This document shows positions 6,868 to 22,164 of a stretch of DNA of 32,000 nt, in pieces. Under the pieces are notes generated by a model, which saw only the letters and a list, made by a program, of their open reading frames with translations, did not search any database and was not told the origin of the DNA. A program made the position numbers and the translations under genes. Where the stretch lies: positions 3,086,669 to 3,118,668 of the forward strand of contig NZ_CP026372.1 of NCBI RefSeq assembly GCF_002953135.1. Direction: 5' to 3'. This DNA comes from Sphingobium sp. SCG-1. GTDB lineage: Bacteria; Pseudomonadota; Alphaproteobacteria; Sphingomonadales; Sphingomonadaceae. Each line of letters begins with the position of its first letter. Positions within the stretch are counted from its first letter, which is position 1.

Positions 6868-8961
6868 ATGTCCAGCATGGTCACGTCAACGCCCCAGGTC
6901 CGCAATCGCTTCTTCCGGACCGCTCTCATTGTCCTTCTGTCGTCCACCGCCGCAGCCAGCGCGCAAACCGAAGCACCGACGCAGCTCCTGCCGCCGTCGA
7001 TGCAGCAGCCCGCGTCTGCGCAGCCCGCCATGGTGCAGCCGATCCCCGGATCGAGCGGCTGGGATGCCGCGCGCGCACAAGTCGGCGTGTCGCAGGATAC
7101 GCAGATCGTCGGCGCGATCAACGAATGGCGGCGCCTGCAACAGAGCGACGGCCTCGGCTTCTCCTCCTACGCCAGCTTCATCACGACCTATCCTGATTGG
7201 CCGGGCGAGGACCGGATGCGGCGGCTGGCGGAAACGTCGATCAACCCCAATGCCTACGAACCCAATCAGGTCGTGGCCTTCTTCGCCCGCTTCCCCGCCC
7301 GGACCGCCGTGGGTCACGCCCGCAATGCCGTCGCGCTTTCGGCCATCGGCCGCATGGCGGAAGCGAAGGTCGCGGCGAAAACCGCATGGACGACGGGCGC
7401 GCTTTCTCCGCAGGACGAAGCGCAATTGATGTCGCTGTTCGGCAGCAATTTCTCGACCGCCGATTACGACAAGCGTGCCGACGTACTGCTCTTCGCCCGC
7501 GCCAATGCCGGGGCGGAGCGCATCCTCGCCTACACCTCGCCTGCCCGCCGCCCGGTTTTCGCCGCGCGGATAGCGCTCCAGCGCAAGGCGCCTGACGCCA
7601 TGGCGCAGATGCAGGCCGCCGAGGCCTATGGCGCCAGCGATCCGGGCTTCCTCAACGACAAGGCCACATGGTTGCGCGACAGCGGCAACAGCATCGCGGC
7701 GCGCACATTACTTTCGCAGCGCCAGACGCTTTCGACCCCGCCCGGCGACCCGGAAAAGTGGTACGAAACGCTGCTTACCAACGCCCGCGCGGCGGCGAAC
7801 GACAGCCAGTGGAGCTACGCATGGGGCATCGCCAGCAAGGTCGATGACGCGTACCCCGCTGGGATAGCCGTCCGCGACCGCAGCATCGGCGAGCGTGACG
7901 ATTACACGAGCCTCACTTGGCTTGCAGGCACCACCGCCTTCTACAATCTCGGCCGCCCGCGCGACGCGATCGGCATGTTCCAGCGCTACGCCACCGCAGC
8001 CCGCTCCCCGCAGACGATCTCCAAAGGCTTCTACTGGGCAGGCCGCGCCGCCCTCGCCAGCGGCGATCCTGCCGGAGCCAACGCCTTCTTCCAGCAAGCC
8101 GCCGCCTACCCCGATCAGTTCTACGGCCAGTTGTCCCTGGAACGGCTCGGCCGCCCCGTACCCGCGCCAGCACCCGCCGTGATGACCGCCGTCACCGAAG
8201 CGGATCGCGCCGCCTTCGCCAGCCGCAGCGTCGTGCGCGCCGCGCGAGCACTGGGGAAAATGGGCTATTGGGAAGACCAGAGCAAATTCGTCCGCGCCAT
8301 AGCCGCCAGCGCCGACGATCAGCAGAGCCATCTCCTCTCCGCCGAACTCGCCCTCACATTGGGCCGTCCTGACCTGGGCGTCATGGTTGGACGTCGTGCT
8401 GTATCGGACGGCCTGTCCGGCTATGGCCGCGCCAGCTTCCCCAGCGTGCCCGTCCCATCCGGCCATCAATCCAACTGGACGATGATCCACGCCATTGCGC
8501 GTCAGGAGAGCCAGTTCGACCGCGCCGCCGTCAGCCACGCGGGCGCACGCGGCCTCATGCAACTCATGCCCGGCACCGCGCGCGAGACAGCGGGCAAGAT
8601 CGGCCTTGGCTACAACATGTCCGCCCTCACCACCGATCCCAGCTATAATATTCAGCTTGGCAGCACCTACTTCCAGAAGATGCTCGATTATTATGGCGGC
8701 AGCTATCCCCTCGCCGTCGCCGCCTACAACGCTGGTCCCGGCAACGTGAACAAATGGATTCGCGCCAACGGCGACCCCCGCATGGGCGGATCGGACATGC
8801 TCCGCTGGATCGAGATGATCCCGATTTACGAAACGCGCAGCTACGTCCAGCGCGTGCTGGAAAACGCCGTCGTCTATGACGCGATCAATCCCTCGCAGGC
8901 CCGGTTCAAGGGGACCACCGCGCCGCTCAGCCGCTATCTGGGCAAGAACACGCCCGGATAG
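6868..8961 (+). CDS. soluble lytic murein transglycosylase (Slt family), exported
   Basis: ORF 6481..8961 trimmed to the ATG at 6868 (MSSMVTSTPQVRNRFFRTALIVLLSSTAAASAQ, a signal peptide). It has a long helical superhelix-type N-terminal region. The C-terminal SLT catalytic domain reads IARQESQFDRAAVSHAGARGLMQLMPGTA...AYNAGPGNV. Confidence 0.9.
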   Translation: MSSMVTSTPQVRNRFFRTALIVLLSSTAAASAQTEAPTQLLPPSMQQPASAQPAMVQPIPGSSGWDAARAQVGVSQDTQIVGAINEWRRLQQSDGLGFSSYASFITTYPDWPGEDRMRRLAETSINPNAYEPNQVVAFFARFPARTAVGHARNAVALSAIGRMAEAKVAAKTAWTTGALSPQDEAQLMSLFGSNFSTADYDKRADVLLFARANAGAERILAYTSPARRPVFAARIALQRKAPDAMAQMQAAEAYGASDPGFLNDKATWLRDSGNSIAARTLLSQRQTLSTPPGDPEKWYETLLTNARAAANDSQWSYAWGIASKVDDAYPAGIAVRDRSIGERDDYTSLTWLAGTTAFYNLGRPRDAIGMFQRYATAARSPQTISKGFYWAGRAALASGDPAGANAFFQQAAAYPDQFYGQLSLERLGRPVPAPAPAVMTAVTEADRAAFASRSVVRAARALGKMGYWEDQSKFVRAIAASADDQQSHLLSAELALTLGRPDLGVMVGRRAVSDGLSGYGRASFPSVPVPSGHQSNWTMIHAIARQESQFDRAAVSHAGARGLMQLMPGTARETAGKIGLGYNMSALTTDPSYNIQLGSTYFQKMLDYYGGSYPLAVAAYNAGPGNVNKWIRANGDPRMGGSDMLRWIEMIPIYETRSYVQRVLENAVVYDAINPSQARFKGTTAPLSRYLGKNTPG

Positions 8962-8970
8962 CGCCAAACC

Positions 8971-9020
8971 CCGTTCGCCCTGAGCGAAGTCGAAGGGCAA
9001 AGCTGAGCGAAGACGAAGCC
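8971..9020. repeat. REP-like intergenic element with internal direct repeat ctgagcgaag(t/a)cgaag x2
   Basis: ccgttcgccctgagcgaagtcgaagggcaaagctgagcgaagacgaagcc, with units at 8980-8995 and 9003-9018 and a small gccct/agggc inverted repeat. It resembles the 'FALSEVEG / PFDFAQGER'-type dispersed intergenic repeats I recall from alphaproteobacterial genomes. Only one copy is in this window. Confidence 0.3.
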
Positions 9021-9080
9021 ATTTCTCGTCCGCTCGGCAAAGCACCTCGATTTCGCAGAACCTGAACGGTACAAGCACCA

Positions 9081-9566
9081 ATGACGCCCCATCCCAACTA
9101 CATCACGCCGCAAGGCTACGCCGCCCTGCGCGCCGAATACGACCAGCTTCTCGGCGTCGAACGCCCCCGCATCGTCGAAGTCGTAAGCTGGGCGGCGGGC
9201 AACGGCGACCGCTCCGAAAACGGCGACTATCTCTACGGCCGCAAGCGCATGCGGGAGATCGACGGACAACTGCGCCGCTTGTCCAAGAAGATGAAGGACG
9301 CCAAGGTCATCGATCCGTCGCAACAGCCCGACAAGAGCCGCGTCTATTTCGGCGCGACCGTCACGATCGCCGACGAAGACGACAACCACCGCACCGTTAC
9401 CATCATCGGCAATGACGAAACCGACACCGATCAGGGCCGCATCGGCTGGGGCGCACCCCTCGCCCGCGCGCTCCGCTCCGCCGCCGTCGGCGACGTCCGC
9501 AAGGTCATGCTCCCCGCTGGCGAGAAGGAATATGAAGTCCTGGCGATCAGCTACCCCGAAGCTTAA
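9081..9566 (+). CDS. greB: transcription elongation factor GreB
   Basis: 161 aa: YITPQGYAALRAEYDQLLGVERPRIVEVVSWAAGNGDRSENGDYLYGRKRMREIDGQLRRL...FGATVTI...IIGNDETD...I(G)W.APLARAL. The GreB-type pattern (WAA..GDRSENGDY) fits better than GreA. Confidence 0.88.
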   Translation: MTPHPNYITPQGYAALRAEYDQLLGVERPRIVEVVSWAAGNGDRSENGDYLYGRKRMREIDGQLRRLSKKMKDAKVIDPSQQPDKSRVYFGATVTIADEDDNHRTVTIIGNDETDTDQGRIGWGAPLARALRSAAVGDVRKVMLPAGEKEYEVLAISYPEA

Positions 9567-10354
9567 CTCATCTTCTTGGGCTTATACCCAAACGCTTGCC
9601 TGGCGAGCGCCACCACAGCCGGATCGACCTCGGGCATATCCATCGGCACCAGCTTCTCCAGCGTATCCGCGACATAGGTCAGCGCCGCGATCCTCCCGGC
9701 CTTGCGGCTGTTATTGTCGACTACCTTCCACGGCGCATGCTCGGTATCAGTCTTCTTGAACATGTCGTGCATGGCCGCGAGATACTCCGCCCGCTTGTTC
9801 CGGTTGCGGTAATCGTCCTCGCCCGTCTTCCATCGCTTCCACGGCGTATCCAGCCGCTCGGCAAGCTGCTTGTCCTGCGTTTCCTGCGTGATGTGGATGA
9901 ACAGCTTGACGATGTTCGTGCCCGAATTGACCTGCTGCGCCTCGAAATCGTTGATCTCGCCAAAGGACCGCTTCCACTCCGCCTTGCTGCAGAAACCCTC
10001 GACTCGCTCGACCAGCACGCGGCCGTACCAACTGCGGTCGAAGATCGCGATGTTGCGGCTGGCGGGGAGCCGGTTCCAGAAGTGCCACAGATAATGGTGG
10101 TCGCGCTCTTCCTCGGTCGGTGCGGAGATCGGCCAGACGTGGAAGTATCGCGGGTCCCACTCCGCCGCCATCCGCTGGATGATGCCGCCCTTACCCGCCG
10201 CGTCCCATCCCTCGAACAGAATGACGCTCCGCTTGCCGTGGACGATATGCGCCACCTGCACCTTGGCCAAGCGCTCCTGAAGCGCGGCAAGTTCGGTTTC
10301 ATAGTCGCCCGTGAACTTGGCGCCGGTCTCATAGTCGTCGAGCTTTATGGTCAT
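9563..10354 (-). CDS. polyphosphate kinase 2 (PPK2) family protein
   Basis: 263 aa with Walker A FEGWDAAGKGG and a PPK2 core (...IFDRSWYGRVLVERVEGF...W...RY..I..FE...). ATG verified at 10354. Confidence 0.9.
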   Translation of the reverse strand: MTIKLDDYETGAKFTGDYETELAALQERLAKVQVAHIVHGKRSVILFEGWDAAGKGGIIQRMAAEWDPRYFHVWPISAPTEEERDHHYLWHFWNRLPASRNIAIFDRSWYGRVLVERVEGFCSKAEWKRSFGEINDFEAQQVNSGTNIVKLFIHITQETQDKQLAERLDTPWKRWKTGEDDYRNRNKRAEYLAAMHDMFKKTDTEHAPWKVVDNNSRKAGRIAALTYVADTLEKLVPMDMPEVDPAVVALARQAFGYKPKKMS

Positions 10355-12291: not shown

Positions 12292-12496
12292 GGTCCGTCC
12301 CGACAGGCGATCAAAGCACGCCCCCCAACCCCCTAGCGCGCCTTTACGACACTATGGCGAAAGGGTGCGGGGTGTCGAGGGGGGACGACTGGCCGGGAGC
12401 GGACCGGCAGGCTCCATTTTTATGTGAGAGGAACGGTCGCTCAACTAACCAAAGCTCCTCATGCTCGAGGCAATTGCCGCCTATTCTAAGTCCTAG

Positions 12497-13090
12497 TCAT
12501 GACATCAGGCGAAACCATGAGCGGACTGCCAAATTAAGGCGGTCTTGCTCAAGCTCGTCGGTAGGATTGCAGTGTGCGATAGGCCCACGAAGCAGGTTTA
12601 GCTGATTCGAGACGTTACTGACAGCAGACTTGGAATTAAAGACGGGTTCGAACAACTCCCAATTGTCCGTTATGATCTGCGATAGCTCGCCAAAGGTAGT
12701 ATAATCTATCAGATCGTCCGATCGCGGCGTAATGCCGCTGTCGACCTCCTTCCTATGACGAGGCGAGACTTGATCACGGATGCGTTTCTCGTCGACGCGA
12801 TCGCTTTGCCACCAGTCCGCTCCTTCCGCCTCGAACATGATGTCCGACACAAGGCGCCTGATAGAGTTTTCAAGACAATAGAAGATCTCGTAAAATTCTG
12901 ACATGCGAGATGCTTCTGAGCGAAGCGCGGCTTCGAACTGTTCGTACTCGGCGGCCTTTCGGCCTTTCGCACGGCGCGGCTCCCATCCTAAATCCACCCC
13001 GAACGCTTGCTCGATCCGCGACATGTCCGAGGCGATCTGAAGACCGCTCATCCCAAACGCGCGAATCAGACCGTCAGGACGACTAGGCAT
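12497..13090 (-). CDS. Swt1-like HEPN domain protein (predicted RNase, R-x4-H)
   Basis: 197 aa: ...EFYEIFYCLENSIRRLVSDIMFEAEGADWWQSDRV...IDYTTFGELSQIITDNWELFEPVF...VSNQLNLLRGPIAHCNP.... The R168-GPIA-H173 dyad is encoded at 12572-12589 (codons checked on the sequence). The ATG at 13090 overlaps the upstream gene's stop. GC is about 43-48 % in hand-counted 60-nt lines. Confidence 0.8.
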   Translation of the reverse strand: MPSRPDGLIRAFGMSGLQIASDMSRIEQAFGVDLGWEPRRAKGRKAAEYEQFEAALRSEASRMSEFYEIFYCLENSIRRLVSDIMFEAEGADWWQSDRVDEKRIRDQVSPRHRKEVDSGITPRSDDLIDYTTFGELSQIITDNWELFEPVFNSKSAVSNVSNQLNLLRGPIAHCNPTDELEQDRLNLAVRSWFRLMS

Positions 13091-13721
13091 CGGAGGGTCT
13101 CAACAGGTGCTCCTTCAGGCTCTTGAAGATCGCATTGAATACCTCCGGGTCCGAGGTCGCCGGAAGATTCAAGTTTATTGTATAACCGAGGTTCAACCCG
13201 AACGACTGTGGTGAGATTGGAGTCTCGGCAGAAGGCTGCGTGGGCTTGTCATAGACTGGTATTGGCGCTGGCCCTGAAGGTGCCGGTTCGATTAACGGCG
13301 AGAAGTTCGCGAAGGTCTTCAGGTGCTTGATGCAAGCGCAGACCATCTTGACGGGACCCGCGTCGTGCGCTTGACCTGTTTCTTCCGTCACCAGACCTAA
13401 AAGAGCGTCGTCTGAGAGTTCGTGCATGAACTCGTTGCGAAGATACAAAGGTGCGTAGGCGATGCGAATTGACGCAGCGACCGCCGCTCCGGACTGAGCG
13501 GGATTTCGAAATTTCTTGTATATCTCACTGGGCGAGCCGTCCGCACTCGTAAATCCGATTTTCTTTAGGAACGAGGTCATCTGGTCGCCAGATCCTCCAG
13601 GAACCTTCAAGATCGTTTTCACAAAATCCTGGCTTACTTTTTCCGGCACTGCGGCTTGCTTGATCCCGATCAGCGCGCGGTCAATGTTGCCAGGGGAGGT
13701 TACGTAGGGAAGGGTTGCCAT
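13083..13721 (-). CDS. DUF5343-type protein (unknown function), upstream partner of the HEPN gene
   Basis: 212 aa: MATLPYVTSPGNIDRALIGIKQAAVPEKVSQDFVKTILKVPGGSGDQMTSFLKKIGFTSADGSPSEIYKKFRN.... This matches my recollection of the DUF5343 N-terminal pattern. A Pro/Ser-rich linker follows, then the conserved-looking tail LNLGYTINLNLPATSDPEVFNAIFKSLKEHLL. ATG verified at 13721. Confidence 0.72.
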   Translation of the reverse strand: MATLPYVTSPGNIDRALIGIKQAAVPEKVSQDFVKTILKVPGGSGDQMTSFLKKIGFTSADGSPSEIYKKFRNPAQSGAAVAASIRIAYAPLYLRNEFMHELSDDALLGLVTEETGQAHDAGPVKMVCACIKHLKTFANFSPLIEPAPSGPAPIPVYDKPTQPSAETPISPQSFGLNLGYTINLNLPATSDPEVFNAIFKSLKEHLLRPSDA

Positions 13722-14388
13722 CTAAAGTCCAAATTATTGTTCATGAGCAGCAACGACAAAACGTACAAGGATTGCAAGAAAATTGTTTCGGTCCGAACAC
13801 GATGCGAGCGCTTGGCCGCCTTTTACTCGGTATCTGGCGCAGCGCTTCTCAAGCGAAGGACAGCTTACGAGACCGCGACGGCACGTGGTGATCGGTCGGC
13901 AACGGCCCAAATCCTCCTGTCCTACACCCCACCCCCTGCGCTACACCCTCGCGCGTGTCTCAGGCTGAAAGCCCTGCACGCAGTCCGCGCCAAGTCCCTT
14001 GTCGATGCTGCCGCACCAATGCGGCCGGATCGCACAGCCAGATGGTTCCCGGCTGCACCTGTGCATTGGCGAATTCATGCCCCAAGGCATTGCGGGCCGC
14101 AGCGCCCCTTGAAGCGCTGCGACACTATCCTTGGGCGGGGACGCTCTGGCTGGCCTCAAGACTATGGGAAACAAGGGAGCGCGCGGCATGGAAAATTCGG
14201 TTTCGTTTCACGCGCCCCACGCTGCCACGCAATGCGCAGGACAGCGCTGCATGACGCTCGCGGGCGCGCGGACCCTCTCCGCCGCAAGGGCCGCCGGGGA
14301 GCCACTGGGGGTGACGTAGCGTGACTTTCGTGACCTTCCAGACATAATCGGGCCTCCGGGCCGGGCGCCCGCCGCGCCGCGATCCGCC

Positions 14389-15576
14389 TTATCGCTGCTT
14401 CGCCGTCCGCTTGCCCGACGCCGCCCTGACTGCCCCAGCCCTGCCCGGCGCAGCCTTCCGCTTCGGCCTGGCCATCACCGACGCCACTACATTCTTCCGC
14501 AATTCCGCATCCGCCAGATATTGCGCATTCTCCAGGCGGATCGCGGCGGCGGCTTCATCGTAGAGGAAGGGCAGGATGCAATAGCGTGATCCCCGCGTGA
14601 CCGGCGTCGCCTCGTGCAGCAGGGAGCAGGAGAAAACCACCGCCCCGCCGGTCGGCGGGCGATAGGTCCGCATCCCGAACTCGGGGAAGCGCAGGTCGCC
14701 GCCGTCATAGTCCCCGGCGTTGAGGTTGATCGACACGGCAAAGCGGCGATGCGCGGTGCCCAGCGTCGTATTGTCCTTGTGCGGGCGGAAGTAGCCGCCG
14801 CTGTCCGCATCGTACCGCGCGATCAGATAACGCTCCATCCGCGTCACCTGAAACTGGAACGCGCGCTGGATCTGCGGCACCAGCCGCCGCATGATCCGCG
14901 CCTGCAACGCGTTGCGCAACGCGTCGTCCTCGATCAGGCAGTCGCTGCGCCGCTTGTGGCTGTGGTCGACGACCATGATCGTGTTGCCGCTCGCCGGGTC
15001 GGTCTTCATATAGCCGCTGTCCTGCGGCCCGCTCGCCTCGCAATAGGCGATATAATCGCGGCACAGCTCCGGCTCCAGCAGGTTGGGGATCTGGAGCACG
15101 GGGGCCGCGCTCTGCATGTCCTGCGCGGGATTAGCCAGGGGGGCGAGTTCCGCGCAGAGCCGGGCATGGTGCGTCGCCGGGTCTTCGATGGGCAGGACGG
15201 CCAGCACGCGAAGCGCCGGATCGAGTATCCAGCTCGTGAGCGACAACCGCTGCCCGTCTTCCCCAAGGCACCCGAACGTCCGGGCCAGCGCGCCATCATG
15301 GTCCCAGAATATGCGGATGCCGGGATAGCGATCGACAAGGCGCTTGTCCGCCTCGTCCTGCGGATCGCTGGAGACCAGGAAGATGCTGGCGAAGCTGTCG
15401 TCGAACGGCCCCGCCGCGCTGTAAAGCTGTTGCAGGAAAGCGTCGACGCCCGGCACGCGCGAACTGGCGATGAAGCTGACGACGACGTACCGCCCCGCGA
15501 CGCTATCGAACGCATAGCGCGGATTGCCGATGCCGCGGGCATAGAGAGTGGGAACGGGATCGCCGGGTGCAAACAT
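14389..15576 (-). CDS. fusion protein: Cys-less peroxiredoxin/redoxin-like N-domain + 2OG-Fe(II) oxygenase (prolyl-hydroxylase-like) C-domain + basic tail
   Basis: ORF 14389..15681 (GTG) trimmed to the ATG at 15576 (MFAPGDPVPTLYARG...). The N-domain (GRYVVVSFIASSRVPG...IFLVSSDPQDE...IFWDHDGALARTFG) is AhpC/TSA-like without the peroxidatic Cys. The C-domain has RPHKDNT (H-x-D), SLLHEATPV (distal His) and TRGSRY (2OG Arg). The tail is ARPKRKAAPGRAGAVRAASGKRTAKQR. Confidence 0.82.
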   Translation of the reverse strand: MFAPGDPVPTLYARGIGNPRYAFDSVAGRYVVVSFIASSRVPGVDAFLQQLYSAAGPFDDSFASIFLVSSDPQDEADKRLVDRYPGIRIFWDHDGALARTFGCLGEDGQRLSLTSWILDPALRVLAVLPIEDPATHHARLCAELAPLANPAQDMQSAAPVLQIPNLLEPELCRDYIAYCEASGPQDSGYMKTDPASGNTIMVVDHSHKRRSDCLIEDDALRNALQARIMRRLVPQIQRAFQFQVTRMERYLIARYDADSGGYFRPHKDNTTLGTAHRRFAVSINLNAGDYDGGDLRFPEFGMRTYRPPTGGAVVFSCSLLHEATPVTRGSRYCILPFLYDEAAAAIRLENAQYLADAELRKNVVASVMARPKRKAAPGRAGAVRAASGKRTAKQR

Positions 15577-15737
15577 GGCCCACTCTATCGCTGACTCGTG
15601 TTTAATAACAGGTTGCGGCGTCTGTCGCCGAGCAACGCCACAGACATATTTTCTTACAATCGCGCGGAGGTTGCGCAACACCAGCTTCCTATTTCCTGAC
15701 AGTCGCCGCGCCGCGCGGCTTTGTTCAGGAGACGATT

Positions 15738-19594: not shown

Positions 19595-19801
19595 ATGCCT
19601 ATCGGCACCGTAAAATTCTTCAACGCAGACAAGGGCTATGGCTTCATTGCTCCCGAAGACGGCGGCAATGACGCTTTCGTGCACATCACTGCGGTTGAAG
19701 CAGCCGGCATGCACACGCTGACCCAGAACCAGCGCGTGTCCTATGAACTGGAGCCCGACAAGCGCGGCAAGACCGCAGCGGTCAATCTCCAGGCAGCCTA
19801 A
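19595..19801 (+). CDS. cold-shock protein, CspA family
   Basis: 68 aa: MPIGTVKFFNADKGYGFIAPEDGGNDAFVHITAVEAAGMHTLTQNQRVSYELEPDKRGKTAAVNLQAA. RNP1 (KGYGFI) and RNP2 (DAFVH) are present. AAGGA lies upstream of the ATG at 19595. Confidence 0.95.
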   Translation: MPIGTVKFFNADKGYGFIAPEDGGNDAFVHITAVEAAGMHTLTQNQRVSYELEPDKRGKTAAVNLQAA

Positions 19802-19815
19802 AAGCTGACGGATAC

Positions 19816-19860
19816 GGCGGCGGGATGTGTGGCAGAGATGCCCCGCCCGCCGCCGCTTCC
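19816..19860 (+). terminator. candidate terminator after csp
   Basis: ggcggcggg (19816-19824) pairs with cccgccgcc (19846-19854), with an inner ggca/tgcc stem. The trailing U-tract is weak (gcttcc). Confidence 0.3.
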
Positions 19861-19926
19861 ATGGTGGCGCGGATCGTCGCCCTATTTCCCTCTTTGGCCC
19901 CAATCTCCAGATAGAGGACATTCATC

Positions 19927-20124
19927 ATGAGCCATTCCGACTTCTGCCGCCAGCAAGCCGCCAAGGCGCAGGCTGATGCAGATGCCACCCAATTGCACAA
20001 TGTGCGCGACCGCTGTCTCCGCTCGATGGCTGCTTGGACCGACATGGCGGACCGCGCCGAACGCGTGGCTGCTGAACGTGAGGTTCGCGAAGCAGCGTCT
20101 GCGGCAGCACGTATATTATCGTAG
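19927..20124 (+). CDS. small helical hypothetical protein (65 aa)
   Basis: MSHSDFCRQQAAKAQADADATQLHNVRDRCLRSMAAWTDMADRAERVAAEREVREAASAAARILS. ATG verified. It resembles small conserved alphaproteobacterial proteins (..NVRDRC...AW..MA.RAER..). Confidence 0.5.
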   Translation: MSHSDFCRQQAAKAQADADATQLHNVRDRCLRSMAAWTDMADRAERVAAEREVREAASAAARILS

Positions 20125-20291
20125 AGTCGGCGAAACGTAACTCCTGTACGGTAAGCCGTTAAGACTCCTTCGTTCTGACGTGATATACCTATGTGGTTCC
20201 GTAAAAACATACGGATAAAAAGAGCGCTATAAAATGCGTCGCCGTTCCCACGCTGGAATATCGGTTCCATAGGAGAGGGAGTGATATCGTC

Positions 20292-20453
20292 ATGGACGTG
20301 AATTATCTTTTACACAGACAACAGGTCTCGCTCGTTCAGGCGGAACGGGCGAAATCGCCGGAGGGTCGGGCCGCTCACCTCGGACTGGCTCGGGCCTATC
20401 GTGAACGCGTAGAGGCCTATCGAATAGGTAACCGCGAGGCCGCCATTCATTAG
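20292..20453 (+). CDS. small hypothetical protein (53 aa), below the ORF-track size cut-off
   Basis: Own translation: MDVNYLLHRQQVSLVQAERAKSPEGRAAHLGLARAYRERVEAYRIGNREAAIH*. The ATG at 20292 is preceded by GGAGAGGGAG. The N-terminal (M)DxNYLxHRQQVSL pattern is one I recall from small alphaproteobacterial proteins. Confidence 0.5.
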   Translation: MDVNYLLHRQQVSLVQAERAKSPEGRAAHLGLARAYRERVEAYRIGNREAAIH

Positions 20454-20520
20454 GCCACACAATTCAGACGGGCGCCGCTGTAAAACTGTCATTCATGTTG
20501 ATGATGCCATCTTCATTGGC

Positions 20521-20847
20521 ATGATGTCTCGTCCCCTACCCCTCCGCGTTCTCATCCTTACATCACTTACGGTGATAGCAGCGTGCACAACGCCGCAGAA
20601 CCGCGTGGAAGCTGGTCTAATCAAGGCTGGCCTTTCACCGCGAATGGCAGGTTGTATGGCGCCCCGCATGACAGATCGGCTGAGCATTGGACAACTCCGC
20701 AAGCTGCAATCGCTTTCTCATGTGGCGCGTCGAGGACCGGGCAAGATGAGGGTAGATGAATTGTTGGATGATGTTCGCGCCCTGGACGACCCTGAGATCG
20801 TTGGCGTTACGAGCAAAGCTGCGTTGGTGTGTGCGCTCGACATCTAA
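20521..20847 (+). CDS. putative lipoprotein (108 aa)
   Basis: MMSRPLPLRVLILTSLTVIAAC... is a signal peptide with lipobox I-A-A-C. Confidence 0.6.
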   Translation: MMSRPLPLRVLILTSLTVIAACTTPQNRVEAGLIKAGLSPRMAGCMAPRMTDRLSIGQLRKLQSLSHVARRGPGKMRVDELLDDVRALDDPEIVGVTSKAALVCALDI

Positions 20848-20852
20848 GCAGC

Positions 20853-20887
20853 GACTTTGCAACTTTGCAAAGTGCTCTTGCAAAGTG
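20853..20887. promoter_or_regulatory. nested TTGCAA-centred repeats, including the perfect 12-bp palindrome ACTTTGCAAAGT; candidate operator upstream of sucC
   Basis: gACTTTGCAA CTTTGCAAAGTG CTCTTGCAAAGTG. CTTTGCAA occurs at 20855-20862 and 20863-20870. TTGCAAAGTG occurs at 20865-20874 and 20878-20887. The palindrome is at 20862-20873. The array starts 6 nt after the lipoprotein stop and lies about 80-110 nt upstream of the sucC ATG. Confidence 0.3.
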
Positions 20888-20964
20888 ATGCTTTCCTTAC
20901 TGTCCGGGCTGTGGTTTAGGGCTACCAAGCTTTAATTCTCACTTCGGACAGAGGCGGCTTTTCT

Positions 20965-22164
20965 ATGAACATCCATGAGTATCAGGCCAAAGAACTGCTG
21001 GCAAAATTCGGCGCTCCGGTCCCCGCAGGCTATGCGGCGCTGACCGTCGAAGAAGCCGTTGAAGCGGCGGGCAAGCTCCCCGGACCGCTTTATGTTGTAA
21101 AGGCGCAGATCCATGCGGGTGGTCGCGGCAAGGGCAAGTTCAAGGAACTCGGCCCCGACGCAAAGGGCGGCGTACGTCTCGCCAAGACGCTGGATGATGT
21201 GAAGGCCGCAGCGACCGACATGCTGGGCAACACGCTCGTGACGATTCAGACCGGTCCCGCAGGCAAGCAAGTCAACCGCCTGTACATCACTGATGGCGCG
21301 GATATCGCGAAGGAATATTACCTTGCGCTGCTGGTCGATCGTGCAACTGGCCGAGTGGCGTTCGTTGTGTCGACCGAAGGTGGAATGGACATCGAAGAAG
21401 TCGCGCATTCGACGCCCGAAAAAATCCACAGCTTCGCCGTCGATCCTGCATCCGGTTTTCAGCCCCATCATGGCCGCAGCGTCGCGAAGGCGCTGAACCT
21501 GACGGGCGATCTTGCCAAGCAGGCGGCCAAGGTAGCGGAATCATTATATGCGGCATTCCTCGGCACCGATGCCGAGCAGATCGAAATCAATCCGCTGGCG
21601 CAAACCGCTGATGACAAGCTGCTGGTGCTCGATGCCAAGGTCGGCTTCGACGGCAACGCACTGTTCCGCCACAAGGACTTGATGGAACTGCGCGACGAAA
21701 CCGAGGAAGATCCCGCCGAACTCGAAGCGTCGAAGTACGACCTTGCCTACATCAAGCTGGATGGTGACATCGGCTGCATGGTGAACGGCGCAGGCCTCGC
21801 CATGGCGACGATGGATATCATCAAGCTGAACGGCATGTTCCCCGCGAACTTCCTCGACGTCGGCGGCGGCGCTTCGAAGGAGAAGGTGACGGCGGCGTTC
21901 AAGATCATCCTGTCCGATCCGGCTGTGAAGGGCATTCTCGTCAACATCTTCGGTGGCATCATGCGCTGTGACATCATCGCGGATGGCATTGTGGCGGCGG
22001 CGAAGGAAGTGAACCTGTCCGTGCCGCTCGTCGTGCGCCTGGAGGGCACGAACGTGCAGCAGGGTAAGGACATTCTGGCCGCATCCGGACTCGCCATCGT
22101 ATCCGCGGATGATCTGGGCGATGCAGCAAAGAAGATCGTGGCGCAGGTTAAGCAGGCCGCCTGA
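20965..22164 (+). CDS. sucC: succinate--CoA ligase (ADP-forming) beta subunit
   Basis: 399 aa: [35 protein letters not shown]...[17 protein letters not shown]...GGVRLAKT.... Canonical SucC over the full length. Confidence 0.97.

Follow-up and report, generated by a model that had tools for sequence, protein, structure and literature searches.

What kind of system do two overlapping minus-strand genes encode that lie by themselves in a low-GC (guanine-cytosine) stretch of the genome of Sphingobium sp. SCG-1, between housekeeping genes? We analyzed a window of 32,000 nucleotides (nt) around them (assembly GCF_002953135.1, contig NZ_CP026372.1, positions 3,086,669 to 3,118,668 of the forward strand); "the window" denotes this whole stretch, and coordinates count from its first letter. 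The upstream gene, here called A, encodes a DUF5343 protein, and the downstream gene, B, encodes a HEPN protein of the Swt1 clade, a predicted ribonuclease (RNase) effector. Judged by its sequence matches, the pair is an instance of the catalogued candidate family PDC-M34 (PDC, phage defence candidate), not a new kind of system. As to its function, we see about an even chance that it is a horizontally acquired, self-contained two-gene conflict module, in which the RNase B would be restrained by the tail of A, according to the logic of type II toxin-antitoxin (TA) or abortive-infection systems. The features that bear on this question are the following:

13083-13721, minus strand: gene A, a DUF5343 protein of 212 amino acids (aa), equivalent to PDC-M34A (open reading frame (ORF), Pfam and PADLOC evidence)
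12497-13090, minus strand: gene B, a Swt1-clade HEPN protein of 197 aa and predicted RNase effector, equivalent to PDC-M34B (ORF, Pfam and PADLOC evidence)
13083-13090, minus strand: stop/start overlap ATGCCTAG, in which the ATG of B (13090-13088) lies within the last codons of A and the TAG of A occupies 13085-13083
13299-13709, minus strand: DUF5343 globular domain, A residues 5-141, all-alpha with one small beta-hairpin (residues 58-64)
13200-13292, minus strand: Pro/Ser-rich variable linker, A residues 144-174, predicted to be disordered
13101-13199, minus strand: conserved C-terminal strand-helix motif GLNLGYTINLNLPATSDPEVFNAIFKSLKEHLL, A residues 175-207, the proposed B-binding (neutralising) tail
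12887-13090, minus strand: N-terminal extension, B residues 1-68, outside the Pfam HEPN model, with a conserved FGMsG strand and a helix at residues 16-30
12503-12886, minus strand: HEPN domain, B residues 69-196, with model helices listed for B at 44-89, 101-117, 133-147, 154-172 and 179-196
12572-12589, minus strand: R-x4-H catalytic motif RGPIAH (R168-G-P-I-A-H173), a motif of HEPN RNases

Both ORFs are exactly as given in an initial annotation made from the letters of the window, and the peptides that it quoted are present. The protein encoded by gene A is 100% identical to C1T17_14085 of Sphingobium sp. SCG-1. That annotation had taken the pair for an unrecognised module, a view that the PADLOC-DB v2 models overturn: A matches PDLC04589 (PDC-M34A) at 5.3e-35, with protein residues 3-206 aligned to positions 4-207 of 208, and B matches PDLC04592 (PDC-M34B) at 7.4e-36, with residues 10-195 aligned to positions 7-189 of 192. 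The two genes are adjacent, on one strand and in A>>B order, as PDC-M34 requires. The window pair has the same A and B components as the family near end to end, in the same order and strand, and we found no architectural difference. PDC-M34 was entered as the cassette FAM_01148>>FAM_01657 in Table S8 of a recent survey, among 145 "phage defence candidates" for which the authors' own term is untested and which were curated by "guilt-by-embedding" (Payne et al. bioRxiv 10.1101/2024.01.29.577857). Its sources were gene cassettes embedded in BREX, DISARM or type I restriction-modification (R-M) loci, one embedded instance being deemed enough to warrant investigation (bioRxiv 10.1101/2024.01.29.577857). 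Because a single embedded instance sufficed, the defence label of PDC-M34 is thin; the family is a bioinformatic candidate, and the copy in the window is not embedded in BREX, DISARM or R-M genes. NCBIfam holds no model for A or B, and the literature searched yielded no paper on DUF5343, PDC-M34 or the HEPN_Swt1 pair. A 2013 survey of HEPN domains places the bacterial Swt1-like proteins in an Abi2/Swt1 clade with AbiD/F and does not describe a DUF5343 partner (PMC3710099). The new descriptive content of the present analysis consists in the conserved coupling of the two genes, their near-obligate pairing across phyla, their mostly solo chromosomal setting and the three-part layout of A with its invariant tail.

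The domain identities of both proteins agree with the first assignment. In B, Pfam PF18731 (HEPN_Swt1) matches residues 69-196 with an E-value of 1.8e-8 and 35.1 bits, against a gathering cutoff of 27.5, and the same profile is matched by all 74 diverse B orthologues (best 5.9e-16). Additional matches among these orthologues are to HEPN_SAV2148 (14 proteins) and, weakly, to Abi_2 (12 proteins). The R-x4-H dyad had been described as intact; R168 and H173, encoded at 12589-12572, are invariant in the 74 orthologues, which come from many phyla, and E74, R78, W93, R123, S124 and N165 are likewise invariant. The AlphaFold2 (AF2) model of B is all-helical, with a predicted local distance difference test (pLDDT) score of 87-95 over residues 71-160. 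Its N-terminal extension is modelled as a short strand at about residues 11-14 and a helix at 16-30; here F12 never varies, and conservation is at least 90% at G13 and M14. This extension has no aligned counterpart in plasmid-borne Swt1 HEPN proteins, whose matches start at residue 60 or later. Profile and motif evidence makes a strong case for the HEPN assignment, and B is predicted to be an active RNase and, presumably, toxic.

The protein encoded by gene A has three parts: a domain modelled with confidence, a linker that varies and is predicted to be disordered, and a C-terminal strand-helix motif that is close to invariant. The folded part is the DUF5343 domain (Pfam PF17278, E-value 9.3e-33, residues 5-141, profile positions 1-136 of 140), which is matched in 40 of 40 aligned homologues and modelled with pLDDT above 90 across residues 1-143. 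Its first 65 or so residues adopt a helix-helix-helix-hairpin arrangement in the AF2 model, which is winged-helix-like. Foldseek retrieved no significant structural relative of the domain from PDB or BFVD (no match with E below about 1), and a sequence-profile search found no sequence relative in PDB. The linker that follows has pLDDT below 50 (residues 144-178), and alignments of 28 and 40 homologues reveal no conserved column and a variable length. Beyond it, residues 175-207 form the best-conserved part of A, down to 27% overall identity, with the consensus YTINLNLPATsD..VFNAIFKSL. Either invariance or at least 90% conservation is seen at Y180, I182, N183, L186, P187, V194, I198, F199, L202, L206 and L207. 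AF2 models this tail as an extended segment and a helix at 192-206 (block-mean pLDDT about 73-86 over residues 181-210), that is, as a predicted amphipathic strand followed by a helix. By analogy with antitoxins, the tail may be the part of A that binds B.

Tail-less DUF5343 proteins were considered as a separate architecture and rejected, since nearly all of them proved to be metagenome calls with a truncation or a frameshift, and those that seemed "longer" have mis-called starts. A protein of 457 aa (P0297, L187:5001-6374; metagenome-assembled genome (MAG) GCA_028289345.1, contig JANQQL010000047.1) combines a DUF5343 N-terminal domain (residues 4-153) with a Ser/Thr kinase that replaces the tail. 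Its contig also holds a canonical DUF5343 and HEPN pair (1220-2391), an IS110 transposase and a TIR-domain protein (8282-9688). Of the 120 matches listed, the P0297 cluster alone combines DUF5343 with a kinase; related kinases of about 460 aa carry other N-terminal regions.

To what extent do the two genes belong together? When 185,579 genomes, each from a different species, were scanned, relatives of A numbered at least 574; we analyzed pairing from the A side in the best 80 of these loci, 78 of which have room downstream. The 80 loci span Alpha-, Beta-, Gamma- and Deltaproteobacteria, Acidobacteriota, Verrucomicrobiota, Nitrospirota, Planctomycetota, Gemmatimonadota, Actinomycetota, Spirochaetes, Chloroflexota and others. 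In every one of the 78 loci with such room, B lies directly 3' of A in the same orientation; it is truncated or frameshifted in four of them (L031, L036, L043 and L063). Viewed from the B side, a full-length A precedes B in 54 of 60 testable metagenome contigs; the remaining contigs comprise three with a frameshifted A and an intact B, one with both genes frameshifted and two without A. The converse damage, to B with A intact, is also seen in two metagenome loci. Several of these damaged genes may be explained by assembly errors. A and B are near-obligate neighbours in both directions, and the co-conservation proposed for the DUF5343 and HEPN families holds. Across loci, identity to the window copy is correlated between A and B (r = 0.83), from which we conclude that the two genes travel together.

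The initial annotation had also read coupled translation from the overlap ATGCCTAG, which is present at 13090-13083 on the minus strand. A stop/start overlap is kept in 76 of 85 related loci, and its conservation across phyla supports translational coupling. In 47 loci it measures 8 nt, as in the window; 11 loci overlap by 11 nt, 10 by 14 nt and seven by 17, 4 or 1 nt. An outlying overlap of 64 nt occurs in one locus and gaps of up to 17 nt occur in six, and the two large gaps between A and B (L036 and L063) belong to damaged B genes.

Two loci show unrelated ORFs at the position of A. At L115:1-1264, an IS5-like transposase ORF (IS, insertion sequence) takes the place of A and abuts a B gene without its first 13 or so codons. 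At L169:450-1996, an unrelated ORF of 264 aa on the opposite strand lies upstream of an intact B, which has no DUF5343 partner.

The base composition of the pair is foreign. GC content is 0.54 and GC at third codon positions (GC3) is 0.61-0.64 for A and B, versus 0.66 and 0.82 for both flanking genes, and the low-GC stretch spans about 12400 to 13800. The description of the pair as a low-GC insert between housekeeping genes is accurate: genes for a PhoD phosphatase, PPK2 and GreA/B flank it on one side, and those for a 2-oxoglutarate (2OG)-oxygenase/AhpC fusion and an M1 aminopeptidase flank it on the other. Between the window and its relatives, DNA similarity extends no more than about 20 nt beyond the two coding sequences, and the neighbours of the pair differ from lineage to lineage. 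From the similarity that ends at the coding borders, the GC3 contrast and the lineage-varying neighbours, it follows that the cassette moves as a unit. Around the insert, we found no tRNA gene and no flanking direct or inverted repeats beyond chance as hallmarks of a mobile element, and no integrase among those flanking genes checked.

How might such a cassette act? In the reading to which we give even chances, A would be made first, and translation of B would be coupled to it via the overlapping stop and start codons. The tethered terminal peptide of A would then bind B, possibly by pairing with the conserved N-terminal strand-helix of B, and hold the RNase off, the DUF5343 domain being the regulatory or sensing part. 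Once A is depleted, degraded or diverted, for example by phage infection or stress, B would cleave cellular and/or invader RNA and arrest growth; both this trigger and any anti-phage effect are presumptive. The layout of A is antitoxin-like, with an upstream gene, a folded N-terminal domain, a disordered linker and a conserved C-terminal peptide, and the family was chosen as a defence candidate since some copies turn up inside BREX, DISARM or type I R-M systems (bioRxiv 10.1101/2024.01.29.577857). In a few loci, the pair also has other TA or defence genes beside it.

Several results weigh against this reading. The binding of A to B via the tail is a guess from architecture, and the literature searched holds no functional test of the pair. 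Foldseek retrieved no solved HEPN structure from PDB with the B model (no match with E < 1), and the sole sequence hint for B in PDB, Csm6 (4rgp), is marginal (E 0.019). In A, no consistent DNA-binding or helix-turn-helix (HTH) family was detected, winged HTH matches being weak, isolated and confined to one of 40 members each, and no operator-like repeat or palindrome is conserved upstream. A and B decay at comparable rates and not asymmetrically, contrary to strict addiction: A is frameshifted or lost beside an apparently intact B in 5 of the 60 metagenome contigs, and loci with a damaged B are about as frequent, which may stem from assembly errors or from genuine tolerance. The 147 immediate neighbour proteins at 76 loci include no recurrent family; they are mostly assorted metabolic or housekeeping proteins, with two GajA/AbiL-like ATPases and two integrases, and this does not bear out the proposed location in defence islands. 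A search of 72,556 plasmid records with B alone as the query did not recover the pair, a search of 50,697 phage records did not recover A, and A is present in only 8 of 2.9 million viral contigs. Since it is absent from the plasmid and phage records searched and has no recurrent neighbour family, we regard the pair as a two-gene cassette of chromosomes that moves horizontally and is mostly "solo".

The comparable decay of the two genes is also what lends some weight to the opposite sign of regulation, namely that A is an activator or sensor-adaptor. B alone would be inert, for example as a monomer, until DUF5343 recognises an invader cue (a nucleic acid or a phage protein) and the tail assembles or licenses the HEPN dimer, the pair being a two-component effector. 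B is intact with A frameshifted or absent in L111, L151, L160 and L169, which would be hard to tolerate if B were constitutively toxic; however, the A-less copies of B come from short metagenome contigs, which are prone to frameshifts, and in one of them an IS element has cut the gene. The folded domain of A, large (about 140 aa) and highly conserved, goes beyond the need of a simple neutralising peptide, and for many HEPN RNases, Csm6, RNase L and Cas13 among them, control is by activation, not by de-repression. The DUF5343-Ser/Thr kinase fusion P0297, from one MAG, hints at a modular input domain with different outputs, but it is a single cluster from one organism. Against activation stands the layout itself, as partner-first order, tight coupling, a disordered linker and a conserved terminal peptide are those of a classic type II antitoxin. 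We consider an activating A possible, if doubtful. A bolder version of the restraint model treats DUF5343 as a previously unseen fold and modular sensor; the tail and the N-terminal strand-helix of B would form a "split mini-domain" latch that a phage cue frees, and the sensor could be wired to other effectors, as in the kinase fusion of L187. This proposal strikes us as rather unlikely.

If A does neutralise B, the pair might still be a plain chromosomal TA system, selfish or stress-responsive, with no role in phage defence, its PDC label reflecting occasional chance embedding in R-M or BREX loci. The overwhelmingly housekeeping neighbours at the 76 loci, with no recurrent defence family, fit this, as does the window copy, which lies alone between phoD and the oxygenase gene. 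The pair also stands beside other TA pairs in L001 and in Raskinella, and the single embedded instance that sufficed for PDC candidacy (bioRxiv 10.1101/2024.01.29.577857) points the same way. Yet many validated defence systems are mostly "solo" too (bioRxiv 10.1101/2024.01.29.577857), the Abi2/Swt1 clade of HEPN proteins includes the abortive-infection proteins AbiD/F (PMC3710099), and absence from the plasmid records searched speaks against a role in plasmid addiction. We judge this reading, a plain TA system with no part in phage defence, unlikely. It is highly improbable that the pair is no conflict system at all, that is, a housekeeping pair for RNA processing or regulation, or an inactive remnant. 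Eukaryotic Swt1 and Las1 are indeed HEPN domains recruited to core RNA processing (PMC3710099), and the neighbours in the window are housekeeping genes; the patchy distribution over many phyla (at least 574 matches among the species genomes), the varying neighbours, the foreign base composition and the similarity that ends at the coding-sequence borders speak against a housekeeping function, and the invariance of the catalytic residues argues against a dead remnant.

Like a type II TA system, the pair has an upstream, coupled partner gene, whose product has a folded N-terminal domain, a disordered linker and a conserved terminal peptide, and it is a small mobile cassette, scattered in chromosomes and sometimes beside other TA pairs. 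It differs in that A is larger than the toxin, that no recognised DNA-binding fold was detected in A and no operator found, and that the plasmid records searched yielded no copy of the pair. With the HEPN-MNT systems (HepT/MntA, type VII TA; MNT, minimal nucleotidyltransferase), it shares a small stand-alone HEPN protein with R-x4-H and a two-gene operon with a cognate partner. However, A is not a minimal nucleotidyltransferase: it matches DUF5343 alone, and its model is helical with one small beta-hairpin. The initial annotation had noted the lack of an MNT partner. Because A matches only DUF5343 and its fold is helical, neutralisation by AMPylation is not expected, and we rejected an assignment to type VII on the same grounds.

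B belongs to the same HEPN clade as AbiD and AbiF (Abi_2); 12 of the 74 orthologues give weak Abi_2 matches. AbiD/F act as single, larger proteins, and AbiF has reportedly been linked to a small RNA partner. In the window, by contrast, the partner is a protein, and there is no upstream repeat array and no Rfam match. The Abi2/Swt1 clade has been described as embedded in R-M operons (PMC3710099). An RNA antitoxin of the type III or AbiF-like kind was rejected: a search for an RNA partner found no Rfam match even at E <= 1, no tandem array and no meaningful direct repeats. The RnlA-RnlB and LsoA-LsoB systems offer another likeness, a HEPN-type toxin with a dedicated protein partner. In these systems, the dedicated protein binds the HEPN RNase toxin directly and thereby neutralises it, and there is a link to anti-phage activity. 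The RnlA and LsoA toxins are three-domain proteins of about 350 aa with the antitoxin gene downstream, and we detected no sequence similarity to the window pair.

Some loci have notable company. In L001, the pair lies beside PIN/PhdYeFM genes, and in L187, TIR and PIN genes are near it. In Candidatus Raskinella chloraquaticus and related contigs (L089-L096), the pair lies about 1.4 kb downstream of a BrnT/BrnA toxin-antitoxin pair, and the downstream side is strain-variable; in L090, it holds genes for a type I restriction HsdR, a YgjP/SprT-like protein and an HTH_3 protein. The region looks like a small, variable TA/defence islet. The plasmid search with B returned only distant Swt1 HEPN proteins of 484 aa next to a tyrosine recombinase, a different architecture. 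On two Sphingomonadales plasmids (L185:2445-5023 and L186:2436-5017), a Swt1 HEPN domain forms the C-terminal part of proteins of about 484 aa whose genes are directly followed by a tyrosine recombinase gene, with a 4-nt overlap or, in L186, a 5-nt gap; one case lies beside a Tn3 transposase. They appear to be an uncharacterised HEPN-recombinase pair on mobile elements.

Two regulatory candidates accompany the genes in the window:

13731-13759, minus strand: TTGTCG-N17-TAATTT, the candidate promoter of the initial annotation, weak, matching 7 of 12 consensus positions
12457-12470, minus strand: terminator-like hairpin with a T-rich tail, 27 nt past the stop codon of B, weak

The promoter sequence is where the initial annotation had placed it; its promoter function fared less well, given the 7/12 match, which our scan, reporting only matches of at least 9/12 consensus positions, did not return, and a -10 element that is not conserved in the closest relatives. 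In most relatives, a GGAG-type ribosome-binding site precedes A by 6-10 nt, and the window has GGA at -11 to -9; the suggestion of an almost leaderless transcript is therefore unsupported. The terminator consensus scan found one site versus 2.3 expected in shuffled sequences, which is no better than chance.

The upstream neighbour (14389-15681, minus strand, 430 aa) has an unusual architecture in which an AhpC/TSA-like, thioredoxin-fold N-terminal region is fused to a C-terminal 2OG-Fe(II) oxygenase domain. The 667 bp between this oxygenase gene and gene A (13722-14388) contain no convincing ORF, no Rfam match and no repeats; their A-proximal part (13722-13960) is low in GC (0.56), and the remainder is host-like (0.675). 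Farther along the window lies a second low-GC stretch, 19782-20964 (0.53-0.55 over 20001-21000), with a minus-strand ORF of 162 aa without a Pfam match (19782-20270), followed by about 690 bp without an ORF of at least 110 aa up to sucC (20965). This stretch could represent a further small insert of foreign DNA, or else a regulatory region.

HEPN RNases do the cutting in Cas13, Csm6, RNase L and many toxins of abortive infection, and the interest of each lies in how the RNase is kept silent and then released. The pair described here is widespread, with relatives of A in at least 574 species genomes and about ten phyla, and compact (1.2 kb), and its partner domain is one without an assigned function or structural relative. 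If it is an ordinary TA system, the gain would be modest, namely one more HEPN toxin family with a new antitoxin. Data on toxicity and rescue, tail deletion and phage challenge would make PDC-M34 a characterised system, assign a role to DUF5343 and maybe reveal a new way of gating HEPN domains. Should the latch proposal be true, the pair would represent a new mechanism of neutralisation and sensing for HEPN toxins and would provide a function for DUF5343, a domain found in hundreds of species.

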